From positions 1,088,001 to 1,152,000 of the forward strand of contig CAVXKA010000002.1 of NCBI GenBank assembly GCA_963762255.1: a stretch of 64,000 nt of DNA. The letters run 5' to 3'. The number at the start of each line of letters is the position of its first letter. The first letter of the stretch is position 1. The position numbers and the translations under genes are program-made. The notes beneath the pieces were generated by a model that saw only the letters and a program-made list of their open reading frames with translations, made no database searches and was not told where the DNA came from. Below are positions 49,561 through 64,000 of this stretch, piece by piece. This DNA is from Candidatus Eiseniibacteriota bacterium. GTDB taxonomy: Bacteria > Eisenbacteria > RBG-16-71-46 > JABDJR01.

Positions 49561-50606
49561 AGCGAGCGATCTTCCCAGTCACCCTACTTGCCGCGGGGAT
49601 CGCCCTCGCCGCCGGCTGCGGCTGCGGCGGCGGTGGCGGCAACCGCGTGCTCAACGTCTACACCTGGGCCGACTACATCAAGCCGGAAGTGGTCCAACGC
49701 TTCGAGCAGGCGGAGCAGTGCCGCGTGGTGATCGACACCTTCGACTCCAACGAGGCCATGTATGCCAAGCTGAAGGCGGGTGCCTCCGGGTACGACATCA
49801 TCACGCCGTCGAGCTACATGGTGAACATCATGGCCGGGCAGGATCTCCTTCAGCCGCTCGACCGCGCGCGTCTCCCTAACCTCGCCAACGTCGATCCCGA
49901 GTACTTGACCATCGCCCTCGACAAGGAAATGAAGTGGAGCGTGCCCTACATGCTCACGAACTCGGGGATCGCCTACCTCAAGAGCAAGGTGGAGAATGTC
50001 GAGCCCACCTGGGCGGTGTTCGATCGCGCCGATCTCAAGGGGCGCATGACCATGCTCAACGACATGCGCGAGACGGTCGGGGCCGCGCTCAAGTTCCTGG
50101 GCTACAGCCTCAACACCACCGACGACGCGCAACTGGCGGAGGCCCGCGACGTCGTGATCCGCTGGAAGCACAACCTGGCCAAGTTCGAGAACGAGCAGTA
50201 CAAGAGCGGAATCGCGTCGGAGGAGTTCCTGCTCGTCCACGGATACAACGGAGACATTCTCCAGGCTCAGGCGGAGAACCCGGACATCGTGTTCGTCGCG
50301 CCCCGCGAGGGCATCTCCGTGGCCTGCGACGACCTGGTGATCCCCAAGGACGCCAAGCAGGTGGATCTGGCCCACAAGTTCATCAACTTCCTGCACGAAC
50401 CGGAGGTGGCGGCCGAGAACAGCGTGTTCATCACCTACCTCTGCCCGAACCGCGCAGCCTACGATCTGCTCCCCGCCGAGTTCCGCGACAACCCGGCATG
50501 GACGCTGGACCCTGAGACACGGGCGCGGAGCGAGGTGATCGTGGACCTGGGCGCGGATAACGCGAAGTACACGAAGATCTGGGACGAGATCAAGGCGGCG
50601 CAGTGA
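49557..50606 (+). CDS. potD: Spermidine/putrescine-binding lipoprotein
   Basis: LNVYTWADYI, FDSNEAMYAKL, GYSLNT and PREG...D. Confidence 0.9.
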   Translation: MKRAIFPVTLLAAGIALAAGCGCGGGGGNRVLNVYTWADYIKPEVVQRFEQAEQCRVVIDTFDSNEAMYAKLKAGASGYDIITPSSYMVNIMAGQDLLQPLDRARLPNLANVDPEYLTIALDKEMKWSVPYMLTNSGIAYLKSKVENVEPTWAVFDRADLKGRMTMLNDMRETVGAALKFLGYSLNTTDDAQLAEARDVVIRWKHNLAKFENEQYKSGIASEEFLLVHGYNGDILQAQAENPDIVFVAPREGISVACDDLVIPKDAKQVDLAHKFINFLHEPEVAAENSVFITYLCPNRAAYDLLPAEFRDNPAWTLDPETRARSEVIVDLGADNAKYTKIWDEIKAAQ

Positions 50607-50635
50607 CCGCGTTGCAGACAAGGGAGGATGTGAAC

Positions 50636-51991
50636 ATGCGGCGGTTCTTGCATAACTTCGCGATCATGATCGTGGCGGCGCTTCTCGTGCCGCCGATGAC
50701 GTGCGGCTGGGCGGCGGCGGCAGAGGACGCGGATGCCTCGGCCGCGGAAGGCATGACCGAGGTGAAGCCTTTGGTCTGGTCGGGCACGGTGAACCTGGGG
50801 ACCTTCCTCGCCCACCGGGCCTTCTTCGGCGGAGATCCCTACTTCGGGTCGAAGCCCGAGGACACCGATTTCGGCTGGATGGAGGGCTATGCCCGGCTCC
50901 AGCTCGACGTCGCTCCGGCGCCTTGGATGTCGGCGAGCGTGGGTGCGGCCGTCTTCGGCACCGGGGCCACCGACTACTACGGGCTCCGCAACGACGGCTC
51001 GGTACTGCTTGACCGGGCGCAAGTGAGCTTCCCGAGCATCGGGGACTCCGACTTCTCGCTCGCGGTCGGCCGCCAGGACATCCTGATCGGCGACGGGTTC
51101 ATCATCGGGGACGGCTACATCGATCACGAGGGCGCGCTCTGGACCATGCCGTTCAGCTTCTTCGACGCGGTGCACGCCGACTACGAGGCGGGCTCCCTGC
51201 ACGTCACGGCCATGGGCGCGCTCCTGTCGTCGACCTTCTCCGGGGAGATCCCCGACCCCGAGGATCCCGAGAGCGTGGTCGAGGTGGAGCCGGACGGTGA
51301 GTTGGTCGGTCTGGACGCGGCCTACGCCTGGGGCGAGCGCGCCTCGGCGGGGCTCGGCGTCTTCCGGCGCAGCGATCGAGGTGACACCGACAACGACGCC
51401 GCCATCGTGGCCCTGCGCGGCAGCGCGGCGCTGACGGGGGTGACGTTCGCCGGTGAACTGGGAATCGAGGCGGGCAAGATCCAGGGGACCGACCTCCGGG
51501 GATATGCCTACCACGTGGACGCTACCCACACCTTTTGCGAGGAGAGCGAGACCTACGCCAAGGCCTCGTACCTGTTCTTCTCCGGCGACAAGGCGGACAC
51601 CGAGAAGAACGAGGGCTACTACCCGTGGTTCTACCGATGGAACGACTGGTCGCAGTACTACGTGGGGGACATCGTGGGTTCGACCATGATCCTCAACTCG
51701 GACGCGCGCATCATGGTTCTGGAAGGAGGGTACAAACCCGCCGAGGCGTGGGGACTGCGGCTGCTCCTGCACCGGATGGACCTCGACACCGGAAGCAGCA
51801 TCGGCGGGCTCCCGTCAGGAACAGGCCGGCACTTCGCGGATGAGGTGAACGTTGTGGCGGACTACACGCTGAACGACGCGTGGTCGTTCTGGGCGATGAC
51901 GGCCTTTGCGAAGCCCGGGGAGGCGGCCAAGGCCGCGTATGGCGACGACGACGCCACCGAGCTGTTCCTGAACGCGACGTTCAGCTTCTAG
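50636..51991 (+). CDS. Outer-membrane beta-barrel (alginate-export-like)
   Basis: Signal peptide, VGRQDILIGDGFII, FSGD and terminal ATFSF. Confidence 0.7.
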   Translation: MRRFLHNFAIMIVAALLVPPMTCGWAAAAEDADASAAEGMTEVKPLVWSGTVNLGTFLAHRAFFGGDPYFGSKPEDTDFGWMEGYARLQLDVAPAPWMSASVGAAVFGTGATDYYGLRNDGSVLLDRAQVSFPSIGDSDFSLAVGRQDILIGDGFIIGDGYIDHEGALWTMPFSFFDAVHADYEAGSLHVTAMGALLSSTFSGEIPDPEDPESVVEVEPDGELVGLDAAYAWGERASAGLGVFRRSDRGDTDNDAAIVALRGSAALTGVTFAGELGIEAGKIQGTDLRGYAYHVDATHTFCEESETYAKASYLFFSGDKADTEKNEGYYPWFYRWNDWSQYYVGDIVGSTMILNSDARIMVLEGGYKPAEAWGLRLLLHRMDLDTGSSIGGLPSGTGRHFADEVNVVADYTLNDAWSFWAMTAFAKPGEAAKAAYGDDDATELFLNATFSF

Positions 51992-52012
51992 ACCATGCGG
52001 ACCGGTTGAGCC

Positions 52013-53000
52013 ATGCCCACCAACGTCCCGCCCCAGTACCGCAGCGCGGAAGCCCGCTACCGCGCGGCCACGACGCCCGAGGACAAGCTTGCCGCGTTGG
52101 AAGAGATGCTGCGCATCATGCCCAAGCACAAGGCCACGGACAAGCTCCAGGCCGACGTCAAGTCCCGCATCTCCAAGCTCCGCCAGCAGGAGCAGTACGT
52201 CGAAGAAGCACGGCGGCACCCATAGCCACATGGTGCCGCGCGAGGGGGCGGGACAGGTGGTCCTGGTGGGCCCTCCCAACAGCGGAAAGTCCTCGCTCCT
52301 GGCGGAGCTGACCCATGCGGAGCCCAAGATCGGCGAGTTTCCCTTCACCACGCTGGAGCCGTTGCCGGGAATGATGGCGTTCGAGGACGTCTCGATCCAG
52401 CTCATCGACCTGCCTCCCGTCTCGCGCGACCACGTCGAGCCGTGGATCTACGATCTCGTCCGGCGCGCCGATCTGCTGTGGATCGTGGTCGAGAGCGCAG
52501 CCTCCCTGGACGGAATCGAACTATGCCGCTCGCTCCTGGAGGCGAAGCGCATCGAGGCGCAGCCGCCGTTGACGGCGGCGCCTGACGGCGCCGATCCGGC
52601 GACCACGTACAAGCCGGCGCTCCTCGTCCTTACCGGATTCGACAAGCCGGAGAGCGAGGAGAACCTTGCGCTCCTGCGCGAGTTGATCGAGATCCCATGG
52701 CCGTGCCATGCGGTTTCCGTCCGCGACGGGCGCGGACTCGAGGAGCTGCGCAGAGCCACCTTTGACGCGCTCGATGTGATCCGCGTCTACACCAAGGAGC
52801 CGGGCAAACACCCGGACATGGAGAAACCGTTCACGCTGCGTCGCGGGTCCAATGTGGGGGACCTGGCCGCCACCATCCACCGCGACATCGCCCAGCAGCT
52901 CCGCTTCGCGAAACTGTGGGGCAAGGGCGTCTTTGACGGTCAGCCGGTGCAGTGCGATCATGTCCTCAGCGACGGCGATGTGGTGGAGCTTCACTTGTGA
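52013..53000 (+). CDS. DRG/OBG-family GTPase with a TGS domain (frameshift near 52195)
   Basis: MPTNVPPQY..PKHKATDKLQA in one frame. GPPNSGKSS, FPFTT, DLP and the TGS domain (RVYTK..DGDVVEL) are in the next. Confidence 0.85.
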
Positions 53001-53047
53001 TTCTCTCTCACCCTGCGGCAGTATTCGCGGGATCCAAGGAGTCGAAC

Positions 53048-54403
53048 ATGAAACGGAGACGCGGCGCGTCGGCGGTGCTTCTGGCGCTGTTCGCGATAGT
53101 CGGGTGGGGATGTGGAAGCAATAGCGTCACCCCTGCGCCCATCTTGACCACGGGGGACTTCGTGGTGGTGGCGTGGAACGATCTGGGCATGCACTGCCTC
53201 AATCCCACCTACGATCAGGCGGTCATCCTCCCGCCCTACAACACGGTGTGGGCCCAGGTGATCAGGCGGGGGAACCCGCCCCAGATCCAGACGGCGAACA
53301 TCACGGTCGACTATCGGATACTCGGCAACACGTACTCCTATGGAAAGACCGATAGTCATGGCGGGGTGTTCGCGCAGTTCTGGGACAACATGCAGCACCT
53401 CTTCGGCGCGTCGCTTCCCCACGACCGGGGGCTGAACCTGGAGGATCCGAGCCTCCACAACGGTCTCTCCGGCACCATGAAGTCCGCCGGTGACCACTTC
53501 CAGGTGAACGGGATTCCGCTGGTGCCGGTGAGCGATGCCGGCGTCTGGAACCCGTACCAGGTGGCCGAGATCGCCGTGCTGAACGCAGCGGGCGACACCC
53601 TGGCCAAGACCCGGTGCACGGTGCCCACTTCGGACGAGCTCAATTGCGCCAAATGCCACGCGCAGAACGGCACCGGGACCAGTTCCATCGGGGGCGGCAC
53701 CGCCGATGTGTTCAAGAACATTCTGTCCGTCCATGATGCGCTCCAGCAGACGACCCTGGCGGCGGACGCGCCCGTTCTGTGCGCCTCGTGCCACGCGAGC
53801 CCGGCGCTGGGGACGCCGGCCCCCACCGATCCCGGCATGTACCTCTCCGCGGCCATCCACGGCTTCCACGTCGGCAGGAACGCAGACTGCTACGACTGCC
53901 ACCCCGGCGGCACGACGAGCTGCAATCGCAGCATCGCACACACCGCGACCGGTGGGAACTGCACGACCTGCCACGGAGCGTTGGATCAGGTGTCTTCCTC
54001 GATCCGCACCGCCGGCCGCGTGCCGTGGGTGCAAGAGCCCAAGTGCTCGGACGCCGGCTGCCATACGGCCACGCAGGACGTGGACACGGGATCCACGCTC
54101 TACCGCAACGCCAAGGGGCACGGCGGCGTCTACTGCGCGGGCTGCCACGGGAGCCCGCACGCCATGGTCCCGAGCAGCGAAGCCGCCGACAACTACCAGG
54201 CGATCCAATACCAGGGAAGCCACCGGGTCAGCACGCTGGGGAGCTGCCATGCCTGCCACGGCAACTCGCAAGGGGAAGGCTTCGGGGAGTTTGGCGAGGA
54301 GCACGGCCCGGGCGGAAGGTCTTCGGCGTGCAACATCTGCCACACCGAGGTACCGGACAACCACTCCGCGGCGCCGCACTCCTTCACCTGGAGGAGGCGC
54401 TGA
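53048..54403 (+). CDS. Multiheme cytochrome c lipoprotein (7 CxxCH + 1 Cx4CH)
   Basis: Lipobox GWGC, N-terminal AWNDLGMHC domain; heme motifs counted by hand. Confidence 0.88.
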   Translation: MKRRRGASAVLLALFAIVGWGCGSNSVTPAPILTTGDFVVVAWNDLGMHCLNPTYDQAVILPPYNTVWAQVIRRGNPPQIQTANITVDYRILGNTYSYGKTDSHGGVFAQFWDNMQHLFGASLPHDRGLNLEDPSLHNGLSGTMKSAGDHFQVNGIPLVPVSDAGVWNPYQVAEIAVLNAAGDTLAKTRCTVPTSDELNCAKCHAQNGTGTSSIGGGTADVFKNILSVHDALQQTTLAADAPVLCASCHASPALGTPAPTDPGMYLSAAIHGFHVGRNADCYDCHPGGTTSCNRSIAHTATGGNCTTCHGALDQVSSSIRTAGRVPWVQEPKCSDAGCHTATQDVDTGSTLYRNAKGHGGVYCAGCHGSPHAMVPSSEAADNYQAIQYQGSHRVSTLGSCHACHGNSQGEGFGEFGEEHGPGGRSSACNICHTEVPDNHSAAPHSFTWRRR

Positions 54404-54450
54404 CCCCCCGCGGGGCGCGGAGGCGCTGATCGGATCGCGACACGACCCCT

Positions 54451-54492
54451 GAAAAGAGAACGCCCCGGCCGATCCTGCGATCGACCGGGGCG
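54451..54492 (-). terminator. Rho-independent terminator downstream of pntB
   Basis: CGCCCCGG..GATC-CTGC-GATC..CCGGGGCG hairpin with TTCTCTTTTC on the minus strand. Confidence 0.6.
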
Positions 54493-54538
54493 CGCTGATC
54501 CGCCAGGACCCCGCTCGCGCGGGGCGCCTATGCAAGGG

Positions 54539-55942
54539 CTAGTGCATTCCCCCCTCGCCCGCCAACGACTTCACGATCTCTCCCACGACCGCCTTGGCGT
54601 CGCCGAAGAGCATGTAGGTGTTGTCGGCGAAGTAGAGCTCGTTCTCGATGCCGGCAAACCCCGGGTTCATGGTTCGCTTGATCGCGAAGCAGGTCCGGGC
54701 TTTGTCGGCGTCGATGATCGGCATACCGAAGATGGGGCTCGACTTGTCGTGGCGCGCCGCGGGGTTCACGACGTCGTTGGCGCCGATCACCAGGACCACG
54801 TCCGCCTGCGGCATGTCGTGGTTGATGTCCTCCATCTCGACGAGCTTCTCGTAGGGGATCTCCGCCTCGGCGAGCAGCACGTTCATGTGGCCCGGCATGC
54901 GCCCGGCCACCGGGTGAATGGCGAAGCGCACGTCCACCCCGCGCTTGGTGAGCTGCTCGTAGAGTTCCTTGACCCGGTGCTGGGCCTGGGCGACCGCCAT
55001 GCCGTAGCCGGGGACGATCACCACGAGGCTCGCCTGCTCCATGATCTGAGCCGCCCCTTCCGGGGTCTCGCTCTTGGCCACCTTCTTTTCGCCTCCGCCC
55101 GCTGCTGCCTGCACCTGCCCGAAGGCGCCGAACAGCACGTTGGAGAACGAGCGATTCATCGCCTTGCACATGATGATCGCGAGGATCAGGCCGGAGGATC
55201 CGTCGAGGGCGCCCGCAGTGATGAGCAGCTTGTTGTCGAGCACAAAGCCCATGGCTACCGCGGAGAGACCAGCGTACGAGTTCAGGAGCGCGATCACGGT
55301 CGGCATGTCCGCCCCGCCGATCGGGATGATGAGGAGCACGCCGAAGAGTAACGACAGCCCGATGATCGCGGGGAAGAGAGGGGCGAACCTGATCGGGTCG
55401 ATGACGATCAGGACTCCGAACACCAGCGCCACCGCGAACAGTAGGAAGTTGCTCTGGTTCTGGAACTTGTAGGTGACCGGGCGCTGCGGGATCCACTTGA
55501 CCTCTTGGAGCTTGCCGGCCGCCATCAAGCTGCCGGTGAAGGTCAGGAACCCGAGGATGATCTCCACGATAATGGCGGTCGCGCGGAACGCAGTGAGACT
55601 TTCCGGGCCCTCACCGAGCTTCAGATAGAACTCCGCCGCTCCCACCAGACCGGCGGCCAACCCGCCGAAGGCGTGGGACAACGCGGTCCGCTGCGGCACC
55701 GCGGTCAGGGGCACCTTGGACAGCGGAATGCCCACCACAAAGCCGAGGGCGATGGCGAGGGCGATCCATCCCCAGTTCACGAGATGCGGGTCGAGCATCG
55801 TGCCGACGATGGCCAGGAGCATCGCAGCCACGCCGGCAAGCACGGAGCGCCGGGCGGTTTTGGGAGTGTTCATCCACTGGAGCGAGAAGATGAACAGCGC
55901 GGTCGAGATCAGATAGACGAACTGGGTGAGTTGCGCTCTCAT
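54539..55942 (-). CDS. pntB: NAD(P) transhydrogenase beta subunit
   Basis: IGGADMP..LNSY, MNRS, PGYGMAVAQAQ, HPVAGRMPGHMNVLLAEA and GANDVVNP. Confidence 0.96.
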   Translation of the reverse strand: MRAQLTQFVYLISTALFIFSLQWMNTPKTARRSVLAGVAAMLLAIVGTMLDPHLVNWGWIALAIALGFVVGIPLSKVPLTAVPQRTALSHAFGGLAAGLVGAAEFYLKLGEGPESLTAFRATAIIVEIILGFLTFTGSLMAAGKLQEVKWIPQRPVTYKFQNQSNFLLFAVALVFGVLIVIDPIRFAPLFPAIIGLSLLFGVLLIIPIGGADMPTVIALLNSYAGLSAVAMGFVLDNKLLITAGALDGSSGLILAIIMCKAMNRSFSNVLFGAFGQVQAAAGGGEKKVAKSETPEGAAQIMEQASLVVIVPGYGMAVAQAQHRVKELYEQLTKRGVDVRFAIHPVAGRMPGHMNVLLAEAEIPYEKLVEMEDINHDMPQADVVLVIGANDVVNPAARHDKSSPIFGMPIIDADKARTCFAIKRTMNPGFAGIENELYFADNTYMLFGDAKAVVGEIVKSLAGEGGMH

Positions 55943-56334
55943 GATTTCTTCGGCCCCTGCGTCTTGAACATCTTGAGCATGCGTTCCGTGATCAGGAAGC
56001 CGCTGACGATGTTGGTCATCGACGCGAACAGCGCCACGCCGCCCATGATCGTGATGTAGGTGGGGTGCTTGGTGCCGGTGATGAGGATGGAGCCGATCAC
56101 CGCGATGGCGGAGATCGCGTTGGTGAGCGACATCAGCGGGGTGTGCAGGAGTCTCGAGACACGGGTGATCACCCCGAGGCCGATGAACGTCGACAGCATG
56201 AAGACGAACACCATGGTCATGAAGTCAAAACTGGACGCTGCGTGGCCGGCCTCGGCTGCTTCCGCGGCCAGAGCGGGTGAGGCCCACCCCGCTAGCAGCA
56301 GACCGCTCATCACGAGTCGGTTGGGCTGTTTCAT
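55939..56334 (-). CDS. pntA: NAD(P) transhydrogenase alpha subunit, membrane part (PntAb)
   Basis: LHTPLMSLTNAISA and NIVSGFLITERMLKMFK. Confidence 0.92.
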   Translation of the reverse strand: MKQPNRLVMSGLLLAGWASPALAAEAAEAGHAASSFDFMTMVFVFMLSTFIGLGVITRVSRLLHTPLMSLTNAISAIAVIGSILITGTKHPTYITIMGGVALFASMTNIVSGFLITERMLKMFKTQGPKKS

Positions 56335-56650
56335 ATCGCCTTTTTCCTCCCCTGGGTCTAACTAGAGACGGAAGTTTGTATCATCCCCCGCCCGATCTGC
56401 CAACCCATGAATTGACTTATCCATACAGGGTTCGAGGGGGGCGCTCAGGAGCGATTTCAGAGGTTTGCGGAGGCCGAGATTCGCGTCAAGTGGAGGGGCA
56501 TCTTCGTGCAGTGGGCACCGTTTGGTGGACACGAACCTACGACTCCCTGCCGGCGCTTCATTGGCTCTGACTGGTCGTTCACCCGGTCCGTGGGGCGCGG
56601 GGTAGTTTTCGAGTAGGCACAATCGTCTCCCGTGGGAGGCGTGAGGCTGC

Positions 56651-56794
56651 ACCCCAGTCCGGGCGGGTCTATATCCCTATGAAATCAATGGGTTTCGGCG
56701 GATCAGTGTTGCGGCCGAAATCGTCCCCAGGCGGCGATTGTGCCCACTCGAAGGGTGGTTTTCGAATGGGAATGAAACATACGTTGCCCCCCCT
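56651..56794. repeat. ~144-bp imperfect direct repeat, copy 1
   Basis: Aligns end to end with 57584-57726; 36-nt identical core at 56716-56751. Confidence 0.9.
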
Positions 56795-56965
56795 GGGCGG
56801 TGACTGTCAGGCGGTAACCGTCCCTGCACAGATTGGGTAGCACAGACGGCCGCATGGGCGGGCCACCGCGCTACATCCGGCAGCGCCCCCCTGCTCGGCT
56901 ATCGGCGCGTCGTGCTCGGCGCGTACGCAATGAGCAATTGTCGGGCTCGGGCTTCGATGAAGCTG

Positions 56966-57397
56966 CTACGCGCGTGGCGGCGCGGGAACAAGGCCATAGC
57001 GCGCCATGACCGCGAGGAGCTGCGTGCGATCCGGCGGCCCGGGAGCATTGATAACGGCCGCCACATCCCTGAAATACTGCGCGCCGATGTCGGGCGTCAG
57101 TACGATGAGTGCACGAGCGGTCTCTTCATGGGGATTGCTGAACGCGTGCACCGCGCCTCTAGGAGTGTGCATCCAGTCACCCGGACTGAGATCCCGCATC
57201 ACATCGTTGACAGAGTAGCGTAGCACTCCGCCAAGGGCATAGATGCACTCCTCGTTGTACGAGTGGCTGTGGGGCGGTGGGACGTTCGATCCTGGCGGAA
57301 TCGTGAGTTCAAAGACGCCCATCCCGCCCTGACCTGCGCCATCGATCAAGTAGCTAACTTCGAGTTGACCGATCCTAATGGGTTCCGGTTGCGTCAT
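56966..57397 (-). CDS. Cupin-domain protein
   Basis: PPPHSH..EE and PRGAVHAFSN. Confidence 0.88.
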   Translation of the reverse strand: MTQPEPIRIGQLEVSYLIDGAGQGGMGVFELTIPPGSNVPPPHSHSYNEECIYALGGVLRYSVNDVMRDLSPGDWMHTPRGAVHAFSNPHEETARALIVLTPDIGAQYFRDVAAVINAPGPPDRTQLLAVMARYGLVPAPPRA

Positions 57398-57583
57398 TGT
57401 CTTATCCTCGGTGGACTTGTGGATGATTGAAACGGCGATCAACGTCACGCGGCTGAACCCCAAGCGTGCTGTCTACCCCCCAGAGATACGGACCATTCCT
57501 CGAAACAGGGGGCCGTCCCACCCTTGCGGGTCGGCAGTCCCCCGGAGCTCTATTCGCCACAAGGGGAGCGGGGGCAAGCTTCT

Positions 57584-57726
57584 ACCCCAGTCCGGGTGCC
57601 CCTATATGTGTTTGAAATCAATGGGTTTCGGGGATCACCGTTACGGTCGAAATCGTCCCCAGGCGGCGATTGTGCCCACTCGAGGGCCGGTTTTCGAATG
57701 GACATGAACTGTGCGTTGCCCCCCCT
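57584..57726. repeat. ~143-bp imperfect direct repeat, copy 2
   Basis: Aligns with 56651-56794; identical core at 57648-57683. Confidence 0.9.
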
Positions 57727-57991
57727 CGACTCGCGGGGCTGCGCCTCGCGGTCAGACCGTCGAGCTCGGTCCGCAAGGGCGGTCCGTGGTCAAGAATGAA
57801 GGGATGCGAACTTACGACTCCCTGGACGCGGACAACTGGTGGCAATCACTAGGTATAGCGCCGACTGCGCGAGGAGAACCGGTGCCGGGGGACTGCTGAG
57901 CTTGTACACTAGAATCAACCCGGATCGCCCTAGCGTAGGATGTGGCTACCGATCGGCGCGGGCCGGCCGTCGGAGATGACGGGAGCGACGG

Positions 57992-58705
57992 ATGCTGAAG
58001 AGTGGAAGAGCAATAGTGGACGGCCACCAAGCGCGGAGAAGACTGCAGGGCAGGAGTGACTCGGCATCGCTATTCGCCGGTCCGCTACGCATGCTCCGCA
58101 TAGGCGCGTTTGCCCTCGCCGGACTGCTTCTCAGCCCCTCGACTTCATCCTGTTCGCCGCCCAAGGAAGTCCTGCCTGAAATCTCTCAGGGCCAAGCCCC
58201 CATCGCGTTTGCCGGCAAGGTGATTGACGTTGTGGATGTGGCTCCTACCGAGGCCAATCCCCGCGTACGTCCGTATTCGATCGCCACGGTCGCCGCACTG
58301 TCCAGAGCGGCTGGGGACATGCCCGACACACTCCACGTGCTTCAACGAAACGTTGTCTGGTGGAGTCGCGGCCGTCTCAAGGTTGTCGTACATGACGCTG
58401 ATTGCGTCCTCTTCGTCGGCGATCAGATTGCTGTCGTGGCCACTCCTTCCCCACCCGGCGAGCGTTTCCCATGGAACGCAGTCGGCCCAGTGTGGATTCC
58501 CGACTATCTTCGGATCATCCTGGAATCCGCCGATGACGCTGACCAAGGGTTGTACGGGGTCACCATCGGCCCAACTGGCGAGACTGAGCCGGGGCCGGAA
58601 GCGGTGGGCAGGCCGGTTAGGACATTCATTCAGCGCCACTACGAACCGGTCGGTATCTCCCTCTCCGAGTTCCTCCAATCCTGCGAGGCTCAATACTCGA
58701 GGTGA
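57992..58705 (+). CDS. Hypothetical exported protein (start uncertain, possibly ~58091)
   Basis: Long ORF with a hydrophobic signal-like segment; lower GC than the backbone. Confidence 0.5.
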   Translation: MLKSGRAIVDGHQARRRLQGRSDSASLFAGPLRMLRIGAFALAGLLLSPSTSSCSPPKEVLPEISQGQAPIAFAGKVIDVVDVAPTEANPRVRPYSIATVAALSRAAGDMPDTLHVLQRNVVWWSRGRLKVVVHDADCVLFVGDQIAVVATPSPPGERFPWNAVGPVWIPDYLRIILESADDADQGLYGVTIGPTGETEPGPEAVGRPVRTFIQRHYEPVGISLSEFLQSCEAQYSR

Positions 58706-58776
58706 GGCGTTGATCTGCTGCGGGGCGTGAAACTGACCCCAGACTTGGTCCGCTGGACCCGAATCTCCTGAGGGTA

Positions 58777-59100
58777 GTTCCCCTTGACCCCGTCGCGTCT
58801 CGGCTGCCCAATGGGGTCTGGAGGTTCACGCAATGTCGCACCTATCGCCCCCGACGCTGACCCGCTCGGAACAGCAATCCCTGCTTGAGGTCTCGGCCTC
58901 GCACCCGCGGGACCACCTGGTGTTCAGCCTTGCGCTGGGAACCGGACTGAGATTGTCGGAGATCGTCGGCCTGAACGTGGGCGACGTGTTCACGCCGGAT
59001 GGCAGGCCACGTTCCCGCATCCGCCCCCGCCGCGAGATCGCCAAGGGCGGCCACGCCGGCGACGTGTTCCTGCCCCGACGCGCTGGGGCCGAAGCGCAAG
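58777..59100 (+). pseudogene. 5' fragment of a small tyrosine recombinase, with its promoter
   Basis: MSHLSPPTLTR..ALGTGLRLSEIVGLNVGD..AKGGHAGDVFLP, closely similar to 60484 onward. Shared upstream TTGACC-17-CCCAAT; truncated near 59100. Confidence 0.88.
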
Positions 59101-59177
59101 ACTACCTGGTTACGCGACCCACACGACGTGAGCGAAGCGCATCTCCCATGCGGGGCCAGGGGTAAAGGGGTAAGGGG

Positions 59178-60299
59178 TCAAGGCGTAACGGTCCTGGCTA
59201 CACGGAACCCGAGGCTGTAGTAGCTGCTCGCCGGGTAGAAGGTGCCCCGGCCCGCGCACCGGAGGTAGTACGTGCCGGTGAGGTCCCACGAGCCGCCACG
59301 AAGCACCCGGTAGGTCTCGCTCACCGGGCCAGCCGGATCCACCGTCGGGCTCCCTTGACTCCCCGCCGGATACGTGGCGTACCAGTCCCAGCACCACTCC
59401 CACACGTTCCCATGCACGTCGTACAGCCCCCATGCGTTGGCTTGCTTCCCCTTCACGTCATGCGTCTGACTCCCCGAGTTGGCGAAGTACCACGCCGCCC
59501 GCGCCAGATCGCTCTCCGCCTCCCCCGACCAGTACCGCGTCGTCGTCCCCGCACGGCACGCGTACTCCCACTCCGACTCCGTAGGCAACCGGTACCCGTT
59601 CGCAGCCCGATTCCACGTCACCGTGCTCCCGCTCACCGTGTAGGCCCGCGTCAGCCCCGGCTCCCTGTCCGTCAGCGCGTTGCAGTAGTTCACCGCATCA
59701 AACCACGTCACCTGTTCCACCGGGCGCTGCGCCCCCTGGTGGTAGCTCGGGTTCGTCCCCATCACCGCTTGGTATTCCGCCTGCGTGACCTCCGCCTCCC
59801 CCAACAAGAGCGGCTTCGTGATCCTCACCCAATGCTGTGTCTCGTGGCTGTCTCCTCCCTCGCTCGTCGGGCTCCCCATCTGGAACATCCCAAGTTCTAT
59901 GCGGACGAATCCCAGCGGAACCGGGGCCACGATCGCCACCGTCGCCGTCCCGCTCTTAGTGGGATCCGCCTGACTCGTCGCCCGCACCGTCGCCGTGGCC
60001 GGATTCGGCACCGTCGCCGGGGCCGTGTAGAGTCCGGTGGGCATGATCGTCCCCCGATCTGCTTCATCCACCGACCACGCTACTCCAGTGTCTGGCGTCC
60101 CCGTCACCGTCGCCGTGAACTGCTGTGTCTGACCGACCTGCACGCTCACCGTCGCGGGCTCCACGCTCACCACCACGGGCTTGCTGGGGTCATCGCCGCC
60201 ACAACCCAACGACACCGTCAGCAGGGCGAGTGGGATGAGAAACCACCGGTGGAGAGTCGAACCGGGCAGAAGGCCCGAAAGAACCCGTGTGAGGCGCAT
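59178..60299 (-). CDS. Lipoprotein with an Ig-like domain and an FGE-sulfatase (C-type-lectin fold) domain; probable DGR target
   Basis: Lipobox LGC; Thr/Val-rich Ig-like repeat; FQMGS, EVTQ, RLPTESEWEYACRAG, GNVWEW and RVLRGGSW...GFRV. Confidence 0.88.
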   Translation of the reverse strand: MRLTRVLSGLLPGSTLHRWFLIPLALLTVSLGCGGDDPSKPVVVSVEPATVSVQVGQTQQFTATVTGTPDTGVAWSVDEADRGTIMPTGLYTAPATVPNPATATVRATSQADPTKSGTATVAIVAPVPLGFVRIELGMFQMGSPTSEGGDSHETQHWVRITKPLLLGEAEVTQAEYQAVMGTNPSYHQGAQRPVEQVTWFDAVNYCNALTDREPGLTRAYTVSGSTVTWNRAANGYRLPTESEWEYACRAGTTTRYWSGEAESDLARAAWYFANSGSQTHDVKGKQANAWGLYDVHGNVWEWCWDWYATYPAGSQGSPTVDPAGPVSETYRVLRGGSWDLTGTYYLRCAGRGTFYPASSYYSLGFRVARTVTP

Positions 60300-60483
60300 C
60301 GCACACCACCTGTGGTTGAGGATTGCGGCCCTGACCTGTGGACAGCGGTCGTGAAGGATGCAGGGAAGTCGAACGTACTCCGCGAATCCCCCAGAATCAA
60401 GCAGGCAGGTGCTTCACTGGCGCTCGGTTCCCCTTGACCCCGTCCCGTCTCGGCTCCCCAATGTGGCCAGGAGGAACCGACCT

Positions 60484-61067
60484 ATGCCATACCTTTCGCC
60501 CCCCACGCTGACGCGGGCCGAGCAGGCGGCGCTGCTGCGCGTGTCAGGCGTTCAACCCCGCGACCAGGTGATCTTCTCCCTCGCATTGGGAACCGGACTT
60601 CGTTTGTCGGAAATCGTCGGCCTCAACGTGGGGGGCGCGTTCACAGCGGACGGCAAGCCGCGCAGTCGTATCAGGCTGAGGAAGGAGATCGCCAAGGGTG
60701 GCCGCGCCGGCGATGTGTTCCTGCCCGACGCGCTGGGGCCGAAGCTCGTGAGGTCCTGGCGGTACAAGGTGCGATCGGGCGAATCGCTGTCGCCGACCGC
60801 ACCGCTGTTCGCCAACCAGTCCGGCCACCGATCTCCAAACGCCGCGTCCAAATGGCATTCAAGACCTGGCAGCAGCGCGCGGGGTTCGACCGGATCTACG
60901 GGTTTCACGCATTGCGCCACAGCGCGGTCACGAATGTCCACCGTGCGTCGCGCGACCTCTTCCTGGCCCAAAGATTTGCAAGGCATGCCAGCCCCCTCAC
61001 CACCACCATCTACTCGCATGTATCAGATGAAGAGCTCTTCGACGGCATCCGAACCCTGAGCTGCTGA
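60484..61067 (+). mobile_element. Small (~194 aa) catalytic-domain-only tyrosine recombinase with one frameshift near 60830
   Basis: GTGLRLSE (R), AKGG (K), HALRH, RHAS (H) and TTIY (Y). Promoter-like TTGACC(60434)-17-CCCAAT and AGGAGG RBS. Confidence 0.88.
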
Positions 61068-61292
61068 CCGACAGGAGGACGCAAGGGAGATTCAAGATCG
61101 ATCGTGTCCGCATTCGCAACTTTAGAATCCACCCTGCGTTCCGCGTCTTGGAGAATGGCCACGCATCGAAGTCCGTGGCGAGAGTGAAGTAATACGACTA
61201 AAATAGTTGCAGTCAACGCTCTCCACGGGGCAGCTCAGCGAGCGGAACCCCGTCTCTCGTGCAATCACCCAATGCGATCGGAGGGTCCGGCG

Positions 61293-61922
61293 ATGAGTTC
61301 TCTGCTACCGGCTTCCACCATCCAGCGCGTCGTTCGGCATTTCGGCGTAATGACCCTCGTTCTTCTCGGCACGATTGCCCTGCCCGTTGCGTCTGGAGCC
61401 CAGCCATGTCCCCTCCCACCGCAGTACACAAACAGCGCCAGCGTGATGGTAGGTGACCTTCGGTTCATCCTCGCCACGGAGACCTACCTGTACGCCGTCG
61501 GCGATCCGGTCAGCATCATCATGACCGTGGAGAACACCGGCTCCGGTTCAGTGACCATTCCGAATCCCTCGATGATCTCGCCGCTTCAGGCGCTATGGGT
61601 AGTTGCCGATACGTGCGCTACCTTTTACGTGGACGACTGCCCTTCCGTCTCGCCGTTCTATTGGCCTCAGAGCCACTACTACTTCGGGGTGTCGATCGTC
61701 CTCGCTCCCGGCGAATGCCGCACCTACACGCAGACCTGGAACGGTGTGCCATGGCAGGGCGGGACTGCACAGCCGGGTTTCTATGCCGTTCTTGGCGGCA
61801 TGAGCAGGGGGTCGACACTATTCATGCCCCAAGGCGGCGTCCGGCTCCCGATTCAGATCGGTGAACAGGGTGTACCTACGGACCAGCGCACTTGGGGAGC
61901 GATCAAGTCGCTGTACCGGTAG
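61293..61922 (+). CDS. Secreted Ig-like protein with a C-terminal TWGxxKxLY tail
   Basis: Signal peptide; YAVGDPVSIIMTVENTG..LAPGE..W; ends VPTDQRTWGAIKSLYR. Confidence 0.75.
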   Translation: MSSLLPASTIQRVVRHFGVMTLVLLGTIALPVASGAQPCPLPPQYTNSASVMVGDLRFILATETYLYAVGDPVSIIMTVENTGSGSVTIPNPSMISPLQALWVVADTCATFYVDDCPSVSPFYWPQSHYYFGVSIVLAPGECRTYTQTWNGVPWQGGTAQPGFYAVLGGMSRGSTLFMPQGGVRLPIQIGEQGVPTDQRTWGAIKSLYR

Positions 61923-61989
61923 CCAGTCTCGGCAGGACTGCGCATCGCGATCGCACCGTGCAGCGCAAGTTGGGCTATGCGCCGAAGGT

Positions 61990-62097
61990 CTGTCCGCGAC
62001 GTAGCGGTTCGCGAGGTACGCGTCGCCGTTGACTACGACCGTGTACACCCACGTCGGCGACGAAAAACTCATGCAGGGGATTCGCGGGCTGGGGTGC
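61990..62097 (+). pseudogene. 3' remnant of the tyrosine recombinase gene (copy 2)
   Basis: Translates to *RFARYASPLTTTVYTHVGDEKLMQGIRGLGC. Confidence 0.88.
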
Positions 62098-62114
62098 TTA
62101 GGGAGCAACCACAG

Positions 62115-62345
62115 TCAGCCCGATCCACCCAGGGTCCAGACCTCGCGTCCGCTCTTGAGGTGCTTCTTGTGGATACTCACGTCGTCGGCCCCCTCCGCCT
62201 CGGCAATCGAGCGGAGCTCGGCGATGTCCTCGGGACTGCCGTCGCAGAATCCCATCGGCCGCGGATTATTGGGCAGGTTGAGCTGGACTTTGAACTCGCC
62301 ACGGTCCCAGCGAGTCTGCGTGGCATTGTTGTAGGGGTGGATCAT
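62115..62345 (-). CDS. Small hypothetical protein
   Basis: MIHPYNNATQTRWDRG..KSGREVW, with host-like codon bias. Confidence 0.55.
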   Translation of the reverse strand: MIHPYNNATQTRWDRGEFKVQLNLPNNPRPMGFCDGSPEDIAELRSIAEAEGADDVSIHKKHLKSGREVWTLGGSG

Positions 62346-62452
62346 GATGTTGCGGAGTCTAAGCGACCGCAGCTTCGAGAGCCAGACCTGAGCGTCGGGC
62401 ACCGCGATCGGGTGTATCCTGAGTCCCCACGCCCCTGAGGTCGGAGGTCGAC

Positions 62453-62617
62453 ATGTCCGTGTATGAGTTCACCTGCCAGGAATGCCGGAAGAAGTTTCAG
62501 GTCGTAAGGCCGATCACCGAGTACAACCCCAAGACCGTGCGCTGCCCGAAGTGTAGAAGCAAGAACGTGAAGCGGAGTTGGGGAGCAGTTCAGGTCCACA
62601 CTTCTAAGAAGAGCTGA
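62453..62617 (+). CDS. FmdB-family zinc-ribbon protein (absent from the ORF track)
   Basis: MSVYEFTCQECRKKF..CPKCRS..TSKKS, 54 aa; GGAGG RBS. Confidence 0.85.
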   Translation: MSVYEFTCQECRKKFQVVRPITEYNPKTVRCPKCRSKNVKRSWGAVQVHTSKKS

Positions 62618-62640
62618 GGGACGCTCCGTCTGTGGCTTGG

Positions 62641-62728
62641 CCTGTTCCTCGCCTAGCGATTCGCAAGGCACGCATCGCCGCTCGCCCCGACCGTGTACAC
62701 GAATCCCTCGGACGAAGAGCGGTTCGGG
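62641..62728 (+). pseudogene. 3' remnant of the tyrosine recombinase gene (copy 3)
   Basis: Translates to LFLA*RFARHASPLAPTVYTNPSDEERFG. Confidence 0.85.
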
Positions 62729-63054
62729 GGGACCCCTAAACGGACGTGCCAGCAAGTCGCCCACCCCGGACCGGACCGAGTATCCCGGCTTGAACCACGT
62801 GCCGAGTGCCTCAAGAAGATGGCTATTACCAGCAAAGCGCGCTAGTGTCCTTGACTGTATGGTGCGCTTGGTGCACATGGTGAAGTCTTCTCGAAGCGAT
62901 TCGGATCAGTCCAAACCCGCCTCCCGAACCCTCGCCTCGTCCCCAGTGTTTCCATGTTGACGAGGCTCATCGGTTCGTTGCTCGGATACTCCGGCCACGC
63001 CGATGGTCCGACTTTCGGCGGGCGATCTCGCACCGCACGTCTGGAGAAGTTCTA

Positions 63055-63327
63055 ATGACTAAGAAGATCTACGTGGGCAACCTGCCCTTCGACGCCACCG
63101 ACGACGCGGTTCGAGCGTTGTTTGCTCCTCACGGTGAGGTTACTTCCGTCAATCTCATCACGGACCGCGAAACGGGCCGGCCCCGTGGCTTCGGCTTCGT
63201 GGAGATGGAGAACGGCATCGCCGAGGCGATTCTTGCGCTCAACAACACCACCATGGGTCAACGCAACCTGACGGTCAACGAGGCTAAGCCTCGTGAGGAC
63301 CGGGGCGGCGGCGGCTCGCGCTGGTAG
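63055..63327 (+). CDS. RRM RNA-binding protein
   Basis: RNP2 IYVGNL, RNP1 RGFGFVEM and a Gly-rich tail. Confidence 0.95.
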   Translation: MTKKIYVGNLPFDATDDAVRALFAPHGEVTSVNLITDRETGRPRGFGFVEMENGIAEAILALNNTTMGQRNLTVNEAKPREDRGGGGSRW

Positions 63328-63334
63328 TTTCCAG

Positions 63335-63370
63335 GGCCCCCCGGTCACGAACCGGGGGGCCTGTCTTTTC
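63335..63370 (+). terminator. Rho-independent terminator
   Basis: GGCCCCCCGGT-CACGA-ACCGGGGGGCC followed by TGTCTTTT. Confidence 0.75.
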
Positions 63371-63394
63371 CTCACAAGCACGCCCGTCAAGTAG

Positions 63395-63538
63395 GCGGTC
63401 ACTGCCGTTTATCGGATGTCCCGCGACATCTTCCTCGCGCAGCGCCTCTCGAGGCACGCATCGCCTCTGACGACCACCGTATACACCCACATCGGCGACG
63501 AAGAGCTCATGCAGGGCATCCGCACTTTGAACTGCTAG
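63395..63538 (+). pseudogene. 3' remnant of the tyrosine recombinase gene (copy 4)
   Basis: Translates to AVTAVYRMSRDIFLAQRLSRHASPLTTTVYTHIGDEELMQGIRTLNC*. Confidence 0.9.
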
Positions 63539-63761
63539 CCGCCTACCGCCGGTGGTACGATTGATGGTCCTGAGTGGTGACGAGCTTCATTGCTGCCCAC
63601 CGATTCCCCCAGGTTGGGGCATCACTCGGGAACGCCGGGCCTAGCTCACGCGGGGCCCGTTCGTTTTGCCAGCGACTGGCTCACGGTGGAGAGATTCGGG
63701 AGGTTCGTTTAGCTGCCTGCTGTTCAGTTCAACACTGGACGGCTCATCCAAGGGCCACAGT

Positions 63762-64000
63762 CTATCTGAATGCGCTGCCATCCCCACTAAGCCGCCCGCC
63801 AAGAGCAGTCACGATTGCCGTCCCGATGATCCAGAGGATGACTAGGGCGGGAATGCTCGCGATAGCCCACTTGATCATGAACGCGACCATGCTCCCGAAC
63901 GGCATCTTGATGTCAACGACAGTCACTTCATTGCCTCGAGAATCGATCGTGACGACTGCATGTCCTGGTGCTTCGGATTGCCGGCGAAACGCCTTAGCCA
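63762..64000 (-). CDS. Small membrane protein (5' end outside the window)
   Basis: Manual translation gives ..EVTVVDIKMPFGSMVAFMIKWAIASIPALVILWII..; the frame is open to the window edge. Confidence 0.65.
   Translation of the reverse strand, partial: AKAFRRQSEAPGHAVVTIDSRGNEVTVVDIKMPFGSMVAFMIKWAIASIPALVILWIIGTAIVTALGGRLSGDGSAFR

Follow-up and report, generated by a model that had tools for sequence, protein, structure and literature searches.

Orphan 3′ ends of a small tyrosine recombinase gene punctuate a gene array in Candidatus Eiseniibacteriota: a possible counterpart of integrons without attC sites

We analysed a stretch of 64,000 nucleotides (nt), hereafter called the window, from the genome of a Candidatus Eiseniibacteriota bacterium (GenBank assembly GCA_963762255.1, contig CAVXKA010000002.1, positions 1,088,001 to 1,152,000 of the forward strand). 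The last part of the window, from position 58777 onwards, contains a gene for a small tyrosine recombinase, a detached 5′ piece of the same gene and several detached copies of its 3′ end, with unrelated small genes among them. We call the detached 3′ ends tails and the genes lying among the pieces cargo. A first-pass annotation, made from the sequence of the window, had proposed that the arrangement is an integron-like gene-capture system. Here we describe the locus, compare it with related loci in the same genome and in other phyla, and weigh the explanations for its layout. The genome, G000 in our census, consists of three contigs of 1.0-1.7 Mb with a total of 4.14 Mb; positions preceded by C1 or C2 refer to its contigs, and positions given alone refer to the window.

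Results

The recombinase gene and its fragments in the window

The pieces were mapped by a listing of open reading frames (ORFs), repeat finding and profile searches, and the fragment positions were taken from a DNA profile searched with nhmmer (Table 1). Either half of the full-length gene matches Pfam Phage_integrase (PF00589). One base is missing after position 60830, which shifts the frame at codon 116/117, and the product is split over two frames. Related contigs from two sequencing runs have an extra C behind 60830, indicating that the frameshift is confined to this assembly, through either mutation or faulty assembly.

Upstream of the gene lies the orphan 5′ fragment. Each of the two has a promoter-like leader, and the leader stretches 58777-58824 (48 nt) and 60427-60474 are 90% identical; the coding stretches 58833-59075 and 60484-60726 are 72% identical. 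The CTTGAC box of the leader is kept upstream of full genes in other phyla.

Downstream of the gene lie three tails and the stub of a fourth. Tails 1-3 are mutually 65-81% identical over 86 nt, and all three carry the RFARHASPLTTT.Y segment around the catalytic Tyr. Their E-values of 1e-14 to 1e-26, together with the recurrence of the layout elsewhere, exclude chance. Tails 1 and 2 have a TAG at codon 163; in addition, His168 is replaced by Tyr in tail 1, and the C-terminal part of tail 2 is degenerate. Tail 3 is the best preserved. It begins just past the Arg145-His146 codons, its frame is open to the stop codon, and the unit of tail and downstream spacer shares 87-90% identity with the 3′ ends of two other copies in this genome (C1:467 and C1:612, see below). 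The spacer is conserved in its own right, with 91-95% identity between copies over the 140 nt after the stop codon. The TAG at codon 163 was also seen outside the window: it replaces the CAG or CAA of Gln163 in 3 of 12 aligned orphan tails (window 62003-62005 and 62654-62656; L065 ~2990, genome G013). This recurrence is either a coincidence or a sign of selection against translation of the tails.

Table 1. Features of the array, with associated repeats of the genome
Feature	Position	Strand	Evidence or remark
Promoter-like leader of 5′ fragment	58777-58832	+	TTGACC box, GGAGG ribosome site
Orphan 5′ fragment	58833-59110	+	profile nt 1-277, ~aa 1-86; nhmmer E=3.8e-57; PF00589 27.4 bits
Promoter-like leader of full gene	60427-60483	+	repeat identity and conserved CTTGAC box
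Full-length recombinase gene	60484-61067	+	nhmmer profile 1-585, E=3.5e-137; 194 codons expected; intact length 585 nt
Tail 1	61933-62108	+	176 nt; clear homology 61998-62098 = profile 483-583
Tail 2	62638-62732	+	profile 471-565; nhmmer E=9.1e-14
Tail 3	63394-63537	+	profile 441-584; nhmmer E=2e-26
Conserved spacer	63539-63662	+	also behind recombinase stop at C1:467925 and C1:613226
Tail 4 stub	~63663-63700	+	~profile nt 462-501; alignment; missed by the first-pass annotation
373-aa lipoprotein, Big_2 and FGE-sulfatase domains	59178-60299	-	PF03781 E=1.6e-46; PF02368
216-aa predicted secreted protein	61272-61922	+	no Pfam/NCBIfam match
95-aa ORF, no known family	62115-62402	-	no Pfam/NCBIfam match
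FmdB-family zinc ribbon protein, 54 aa	62453-62617	+	PF09723 E=5.8e-12; TIGR02605 49 bits (cut-off 31.3)
RRM RNA-binding protein, 90 aa	63055-63327	+	PF00076 E=2.4e-19
Small membrane protein ORF, start of flanking backbone	63762-64000, continues beyond window end	-	ORF listing
R190 copy 1	56603-56797	+	~190-nt non-coding repeat; nhmmer E=3e-59
R190 copy 2	57545-57730	+	nhmmer E=3e-52
R190, further copies	C1:462931-463121, C1:604820-605012, C1:631281-631476, C1:1412639-1412832(-), C2:1427747-1427942
R190, partial copies	C2:1160036-1160102, C1:633595-633662, C2:1435918-1435999, C1:491448-491498

Copies elsewhere in the genome

The genome holds two intact copies of the gene, C1:467341-467925 and C1:1408173-1408757 (C1:467 and C1:1408), and two full-length copies with frameshifts, the window gene and C1:612638-613225 (C1:612). 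Other pieces of the family are three promoter-plus-5′ fragments, five tails including the stub, and three isolated leader pieces. The hits are confined to a few loci, and the five tails, divided between two arrays, all follow a recombinase gene. The second array, on C1, has the polarity of the window, with 5′ fragments at 607952 and 611272, the full copy at 612638 and a tail at 613362. The order tail 3, spacer, tail 4 and backbone in the window is collinear with the order gene end, spacer, tail and backbone at C1:612. The backbone past the membrane protein ORF (C2:1152157-1153106) is paralogous to C1:613900-614598 and C1:619481-619737.

These data bear out most of the description in the first-pass annotation. 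The five + strand pieces that it named are present at essentially the positions it gave, its 3′ copies do cover one segment around the catalytic Tyr, and the genes that it saw between them (FGE-sulfatase/Big_2, 216-aa, 95-aa, FmdB and RRM) are unrelated to each other. A scatter of decayed copies over the whole genome, which it had named as a possible refutation, was not what we found.

Two isolated internal pieces of 55-60 nt were also detected, at C1:1410217-1410276(-) and C2:1428107-1428169(+). They correspond to gene nt ~200-260 (EIAKGGRAGDVFLPDALG), are ~90% identical to all copies, and have unrelated flanks and similar ends.

The enzyme and its family

The protein of the intact paralogue has 194 amino acids (aa), and its alignment with Xer-type recombinases is limited to their C-terminal catalytic domain (positions 95-259 of the 263 in the XerA model). 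It belongs to the tyrosine recombinase superfamily: the PF00589 domain is present with its Arg, Lys, His-x-x-Arg, His and Tyr nucleophile, and R40, K71, H142, R145, H146, H168 and Y177 are invariant among 24 aligned members. Scores against curated models are far under their cut-offs, with 72, 69 and 51 bits for Xer models (cut-offs 220, 335 and 330), and 47 and 22 bits for the integron integrase models TIGR02249 (cut-off 265) and PRK15417 (cut-off 435). The nearest solved structures by sequence are XerA (5hxy, E=2.4e-15), a XerC-like protein, XerD, IntI4 and XerH.

The family is large and highly conserved: of 2763 candidate proteins, 2498 reach E<=1e-10. Among the best 120 relatives, nearly all have exactly 194 aa, and identities are 68-86%. 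Most database members are carried by contigs of 0.7-5 kb, as is usual for repeats. Close relatives come from records of Candidatus Eisenbacteria (the kin of the window among them), Acidobacteriota, Gemmatimonadota, Verrucomicrobiia, Nitrospirales, Chloroflexi and Myxococcota, which indicates that the recombinase gene moves between phyla.

The layout across phyla

For a census we collected 78 loci from one-genome-per-species contigs and this genome, removed overlaps between loci, and mapped the pieces with a DNA profile built from 41 full genes. The records include, by title, Eisenbacteria, Acidobacteriota, Gemmatimonadota, Nitrospirales and others. The census contains 68 full genes. Relative to the nearest full gene, 37 orphan tails lie downstream and 2 upstream; for the 5′ fragments the numbers are 6 upstream and 2 downstream. 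The remnants found downstream comprise 37 tails, 2 5′ fragments and 3 internal pieces. All fragments (51/51) are on the strand of the gene, and at least one downstream tail occurs in 23 of the 61 records that hold a full gene. Another 24 fragments, in records without a full gene, were left unplaced. The tail-bearing layout is therefore confirmed as a general cross-phylum feature of this large recombinase family.

The gaps that separate a tail from the gene or from another tail (n=33) have a median of 706 nt and a range of 77-2893 nt. At least one ORF that passed a crude GC3 filter is present in 26 of the 33, mostly one ORF per gap, and many + strand cargo genes stop 0-74 nt before the next tail. 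Among the 30 of 37 gap ORFs that were scanned (the seven shortest were omitted), 14 have a Pfam match, and there is no common theme: Rieske (twice), globin, cold-shock, RRM, CPXCG, TonB receptor, HEAT, Lcl_C, serpin, trypsin-like, GNAT, HTH_17 and HSDR_N. In this genome, in G003 and in the related contigs described below, the gene is followed by the ~140-165-nt spacer and then by a tail with no gene in between.

As a side observation, an RRM gene is between-tail cargo in an Acidobacteriota record as well (L079 6991-7335(-)), and Rieske ferredoxin is cargo in two records. Small RNA-binding and redox proteins may be recurrent passengers.

A rearranged cargo block in related organisms

Short-read contigs of other organisms, from runs X1 and X3, cover parts of the array with 93-96% identity to the window; window parts without contig cover carry no weight in this comparison. 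Each run gave two contigs of similar depth (76 and 77; 120 and 113), which overlap by 30 nt. In both, the order is the middle of the gene, an end of the tail 3 type, the spacer, a tail, the 95-aa ORF, the FmdB gene, a shortened tail 2, the RRM gene and a tail, and the contigs end in 1.5 kb of dissimilar DNA. In the window, tail 3 and the spacer come after the block that extends from the 95-aa ORF to the RRM gene. The two orders therefore place the same cargo block at two tail positions relative to the same backbone. As a single comparison with short-read contigs, this is suggestive of a natural rearrangement in which the cargo block has moved, and it speaks in part for the proposal of the first-pass annotation, which had asked whether cargo content and order vary between strains.

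The loci of two genomes of the same genus, G004 and G006, differ by insertions and deletions and by one internal fragment, and the comparison gave no clean pair of an occupied and an empty site. Within-genome repeats around the gene in other phyla were considered as possible element ends and set aside, being too heterogeneous to define them.

Breakpoints and a guest element

Well-preserved tails of three lineages begin at gene nt 436, 438 and 441, just past the Arg145-His146 codons. Other well-preserved tails begin at nt 297-404, and weak tails have probably been cut short by the aligner. The Arg-His boundary is also the position of a guest element. In G038 (L056 7446-10830), three tyrosine recombinase genes, adjacent and overlapping, make up an element of 3.4 kb with inverted end repeats, which interrupts the small recombinase gene exactly behind the Arg-His codons. 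The ends of this trio element are rich in GGCATAA repeats. In G021 (L061 5951-9362), the same element, 85-89% identical, is flanked on both sides by tails that face outward and start at the Arg-His boundary. The trio proteins (404-416, 309-315 and 425 aa) match general Xer-type models below the cut-offs. No three-recombinase element was found in the genome studied here.

A second cluster consists of five structural breakpoints at gene nt ~486-524, within the tails. Three were revealed by the related contigs, which join 63677 to 62040, lack 62683-62761 (inside tail 2) and part from tail 3 after 63459. In this genome, tail 4 parts from the paralogous tail C1:613350-613475 right behind the Arg167 codon, and the C1:612 copy is 100% like C1:1408 at nt 471-515 and then 86-100% like C1:467 through the spacer.

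A further crossover at the Arg-His codons had been suggested by the 97% identity between the window gene and C1:612 at nt 330-438 and the drop behind it. A sliding profile showed that the nt 330-438 block is 86-100% alike in all pairs. The drop is thus the edge of a conserved block, and the mosaic argument was withdrawn.

Cargo genes of the window and a paralogous block

A paralogue of the lipoprotein, 72% identical, lies in the same position upstream of the intact copy C1:1408. The 216-aa protein and the 95-aa ORF have paralogues at C1:71078-71725 (95% identity) and C1:71742-71998 (94.6% identity). Both belong to a block, C1:70914-71998, that parallels 60427-62368 in the window and carries the leader and the 216-aa gene together with the final 27 nt of the recombinase gene and a portion of the 95-aa ORF. 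Three separate deletions have removed from this block the gene, 117 nt behind it, and the 176-nt tail 1 stretch; the cargo was retained. Just upstream of the block is a tandem array (C1:68853-69698, period ~140 nt, copies 85-87% identical), which is probably a gene for a repeat-domain protein.

The 216-aa protein is matched in 4 of 8 family genomes, including this one; in the other three the identity is 35-51%, and no recombinase fragment was found within ~1.5 kb of these homologues. A search for it in metagenome contigs gave 103 pattern matches, 0 of which were confirmed.

Structures and repeats around the array

No attC-like hairpin was found. The sole strong hairpin between 61000 and 64000 is a perfect, terminator-like stem of 11 base pairs (bp) behind the RRM gene (63335-63361), and nothing in Rfam matched 50000-64000, R190 included, at E<=0.1. 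The window lacks a target of the tRNA type, since ARAGORN detected neither tRNA nor tmRNA genes in it.

R190, a non-coding repeat, lies 0.3-6 kb upstream of the small recombinase gene and always on its strand, in this genome and in its relatives G004 and G006. Every recombinase locus of this genome is preceded by a full R190. Copies of just its last ~67-83 nt are found farther downstream at three loci, reminiscent of the att duplications of islands. The 3′ part of R190 contains an inverted repeat with arms of 10 bp separated by 8 nt; a further arm that matches lies ~110 nt upstream, and the arms vary in compensating fashion in G006. Beyond the Eisenbacteria relatives, R190 was not found by nhmmer. 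R190 could be the true attachment site of the element or a structured RNA.

Another repeat, of ~80 nt and 76-85% identity, is present once in the island that follows the window (C2:1157551-1157639, 5.5 kb past the end of the window). It occurs ~25 times in a 17-kb stretch (C1:1538895-1556023) with a spacing of ~0.6-1 kb, and also at C1:835020-840761.

Discussion

A model for the growth of the array

Combining the census, the breakpoints and the related contigs, we tentatively propose, with a confidence that falls somewhat short of even, that recombination inside the recombinase gene's own 3′ end stacks units of a tail plus cargo. The 3′ third of the gene would be the place of DNA exchange. A circle carrying a copy of the 3′ end and one or two genes would recombine with the resident gene; the incoming 3′ end would complete the gene, and the old 3′ end would be displaced downstream as an orphan tail. 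Repetition of this event, or recombination at existing tails, would stack same-strand gene-plus-tail units behind the recombinase gene, and later recombination between tails could move cargo blocks from one tail position to another. Catalysis of the exchanges by the small recombinase, the existence of the circles, the site-specific rather than homology-driven nature of the exchanges and the origin of the first unit are the parts of this scheme that we infer.

Insertion into the 3′ end combined with tail exchange predicts the 37-to-2 polarity and the near-restriction of downstream remnants to tails; random decay of tandem copies predicts neither. The model is also consistent with the Arg-His boundary, with the insertion of the guest element at that point and with the relocation of the cargo block. 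It is close to the proposal of the first-pass annotation that the gene end is the recombination site and that serial integration leaves units of a tail and its cargo. The polar cross-phylum layout and the single-gene gaps speak for that proposal; a conserved DNA core was not found and the tails are decayed, so it stands in part.

A considerable body of evidence weighs against the model. If one site were used, the tails should share a left end, and a common left breakpoint was among the checks suggested by the first-pass annotation. Instead, tail starts are spread over profile nt 297-530, with a subset near 433-441, and two near-complete copies start earlier still, at nt 105 and 142. On the right, 5′ fragments end anywhere over nt 88-277. 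There is therefore no single crossover point. The nt 486-524 cluster coincides with the stretch most alike between copies (80-100%), where homologous recombination would also be expected to cross, and some apparent end points are edges of blocks conserved in all copies, which can fake clustering. At the DNA level, synonymous sites of the tail region are as variable as elsewhere in 41 full genes; a slight dip occurs only at codons 68-73 across phyla, within the stretch of the isolated internal pieces. RNAalifold, applied to 7 segments of the gene and tails on both strands of the 41 full genes, found no conserved fold better than column shuffles, and no dyad symmetry was found.

The state of the individual copies adds to these objections. 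Tails 1 and 2 contain a stop, and with His168 lost from tail 1 and from the C1:613 tail, such tails would be unable to restore an active gene. Tail 3 is farthest from the gene and yet least decayed, which misfits simple serial insertion beside the gene. Identity between a tail and its neighbouring gene reaches 86% at most, which means that the loci captured no recent event, and the recombinase gene of the window is itself frameshifted. The promoter-plus-5′ fragments upstream need a second process. Finally, one G006 locus has a backbone copy in which an internal piece (nt 77-393), not a tail, has survived, and the deletion junctions in the C1:70914-71998 block have microhomology of 3 nt or less.

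Several of these observations are what a passive history would leave. In such a history, complete elements would have integrated in tandem at a hot spot, possibly R190, and deletions and RecA-type exchange would have reduced them, so that the tails are scars. The variable end points, the microhomology deletions, the internal fragment in G006, the decay of the tails with their stops and lost catalytic His, and the position of breakpoints in the most similar stretch all suit it. So do several records with tandem full genes a few kb apart, and the full R190 before each locus with a partial R190 downstream of three, as in islands with att duplications. However, random deletion should leave tails and 5′ fragments on both sides of the gene; the count is 37 to 2, and the downstream remnants are nearly all tails. 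The recurrent order of gene, ~140-165-nt spacer and tail with no gene between, and the tails that lie within 0-74 nt of cargo gene ends at many loci, are not expected either. We consider such a passive history rather unlikely, though it is the main rival of the model and deserves serious weight.

The conserved 3′ region might instead be merely a target, as tRNA genes are, for other recombinases or elements that insert there and bring a replacement 3′ end, with the small recombinase uninvolved. Integrating elements that replace the 3′ end of their target gene are a known pattern, for example prophage e14 in icd, and the trio element is inserted precisely behind the Arg-His codons in G038 and lies between two tails in G021. 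Its absence from the genome studied here, the between-tail stretches that hold no recombinase gene, and the size of the units, far below that of self-sufficient elements, make this explanation improbable. A chimeric join caused by the repeated tails in this metagenome-assembled genome is very improbable: the genome is a metagenome bin, and the best public run holds only a fraction of 0.14 of the stretch's sampled words, but the assembly comprises three long contigs, the tails at 65-81% identity are too diverged to confuse an assembler, independent contigs show the 95-aa ORF, FmdB, tail 2, RRM and tail 3 in the same internal order, and dozens of other assemblies have the same layout.

Comparison with known systems

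The array resembles an integron in having a recombinase gene beside an array that runs in one direction and is made of single, unrelated and often unknown genes, each linked to a repeated element prone to recombination, and in the presence of the same cargo at different array positions in related organisms, as suggested by the one comparison with short-read contigs. The differences are fundamental. The enzyme, with 194 aa against ~320 aa in IntI, has neither the IntI-specific insertion nor the N-terminal domain; our searches agree with the first-pass annotation on this point and on the lack of attC sites, since fold, hairpin and Rfam scans found no attC-like structure. What is repeated here is the 3′ coding end of the recombinase gene itself instead of a folded attC. 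Transcription of the gene runs into the array, whereas the integron integrase is transcribed away from it, with attI and Pc between, and cargo is found here on both strands. The system is not an integron by any testable defining feature, and it would work most like integrons and 3′-end-replacing elements.

The latter, exemplified by islands in tRNA genes and by prophage e14 in icd, leave an intact target gene, then the inserted DNA, and then a displaced direct copy of the gene's 3′ end. Serial insertion of such elements gives several displaced 3′-end copies. Displaced 3′ ends of this kind are present in the window: tails 1-3 lie downstream of the gene, and tail 3 with its spacer matches the 3′ end and flank of two other copies. 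The differences are that the target is the recombinase gene itself and that the units measure 0.2-2.9 kb. An integrase of the inserted DNA's own was not seen: a recombinase domain was found neither among the window's cargo genes nor among the 30 ORFs scanned from other loci.

The Xer recombinases XerA, XerC, XerD and XerH are the best sequence matches, and the catalytic Arg, Lys, His-x-x-Arg-His, His and Tyr are all present. Unlike them, the enzyme consists of the catalytic domain alone and scores far below the cut-offs, and its gene occurs in four full-length copies plus fragments in this genome and is spread across phyla. Shufflons and other systems that switch 3′ ends by inversion differ in that all 51 fragments here are in direct orientation.

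The suicidal integrases of the SSV type have their attachment site inside the integrase frame and form hybrid genes by exchange of N- and C-terminal parts, as described in a 2021 review (PMC8371274). The likeness would be a recombination point within the recombinase ORF; the breakpoints here cluster at nt 433-441 and ~486-524, and their end points are not unique. In SSV-type systems, integration splits the gene, and the C and N parts end up at opposite ends of the element. Here a full gene persists with 5′ fragments upstream and tails downstream, which is the opposite order, and the hosts are bacterial. The review names the PF16795 domain (PMC8371274); PF00589 alone was found here. As for RIT elements, the trio of G038 and G021 fits the published description (PMC3414803), but it lies outside the window and this genome, as a guest in the small recombinase gene. 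The literature searched, a limited collection, contained no description of arrays like the present one.

Implications

It is possible, although on present evidence more doubtful than not, that these arrays are a new counterpart of integrons without attC, in which a minimal tyrosine recombinase, reduced to its catalytic domain, docks at the 3′ coding end of its own gene, captured genes carry a copy of the gene end, and the system has spread across Acidobacteriota, Gemmatimonadota, Eisenbacteria, Nitrospirales and further phyla of soil and sediment. If so, the 3′ end of this gene would be the first bacterial recombination site inside a recombinase gene, such sites being known from archaea only according to the 2021 review (PMC8371274). 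The arrays would be run by one of the smallest tyrosine recombinases known, which would make them attractive for studies of gene flow in soil and as a compact recombination tool.

Should the tails instead be scars, the 37-to-2 polarity would still want an explanation, and this pattern would be a useful marker of a widespread, unannotated family of mobile elements that breaks short-read assemblies. If the tails do work, they would provide a second, independent bacterial way of ordered gene stacking, in phyla that dominate soil and are poorly studied.

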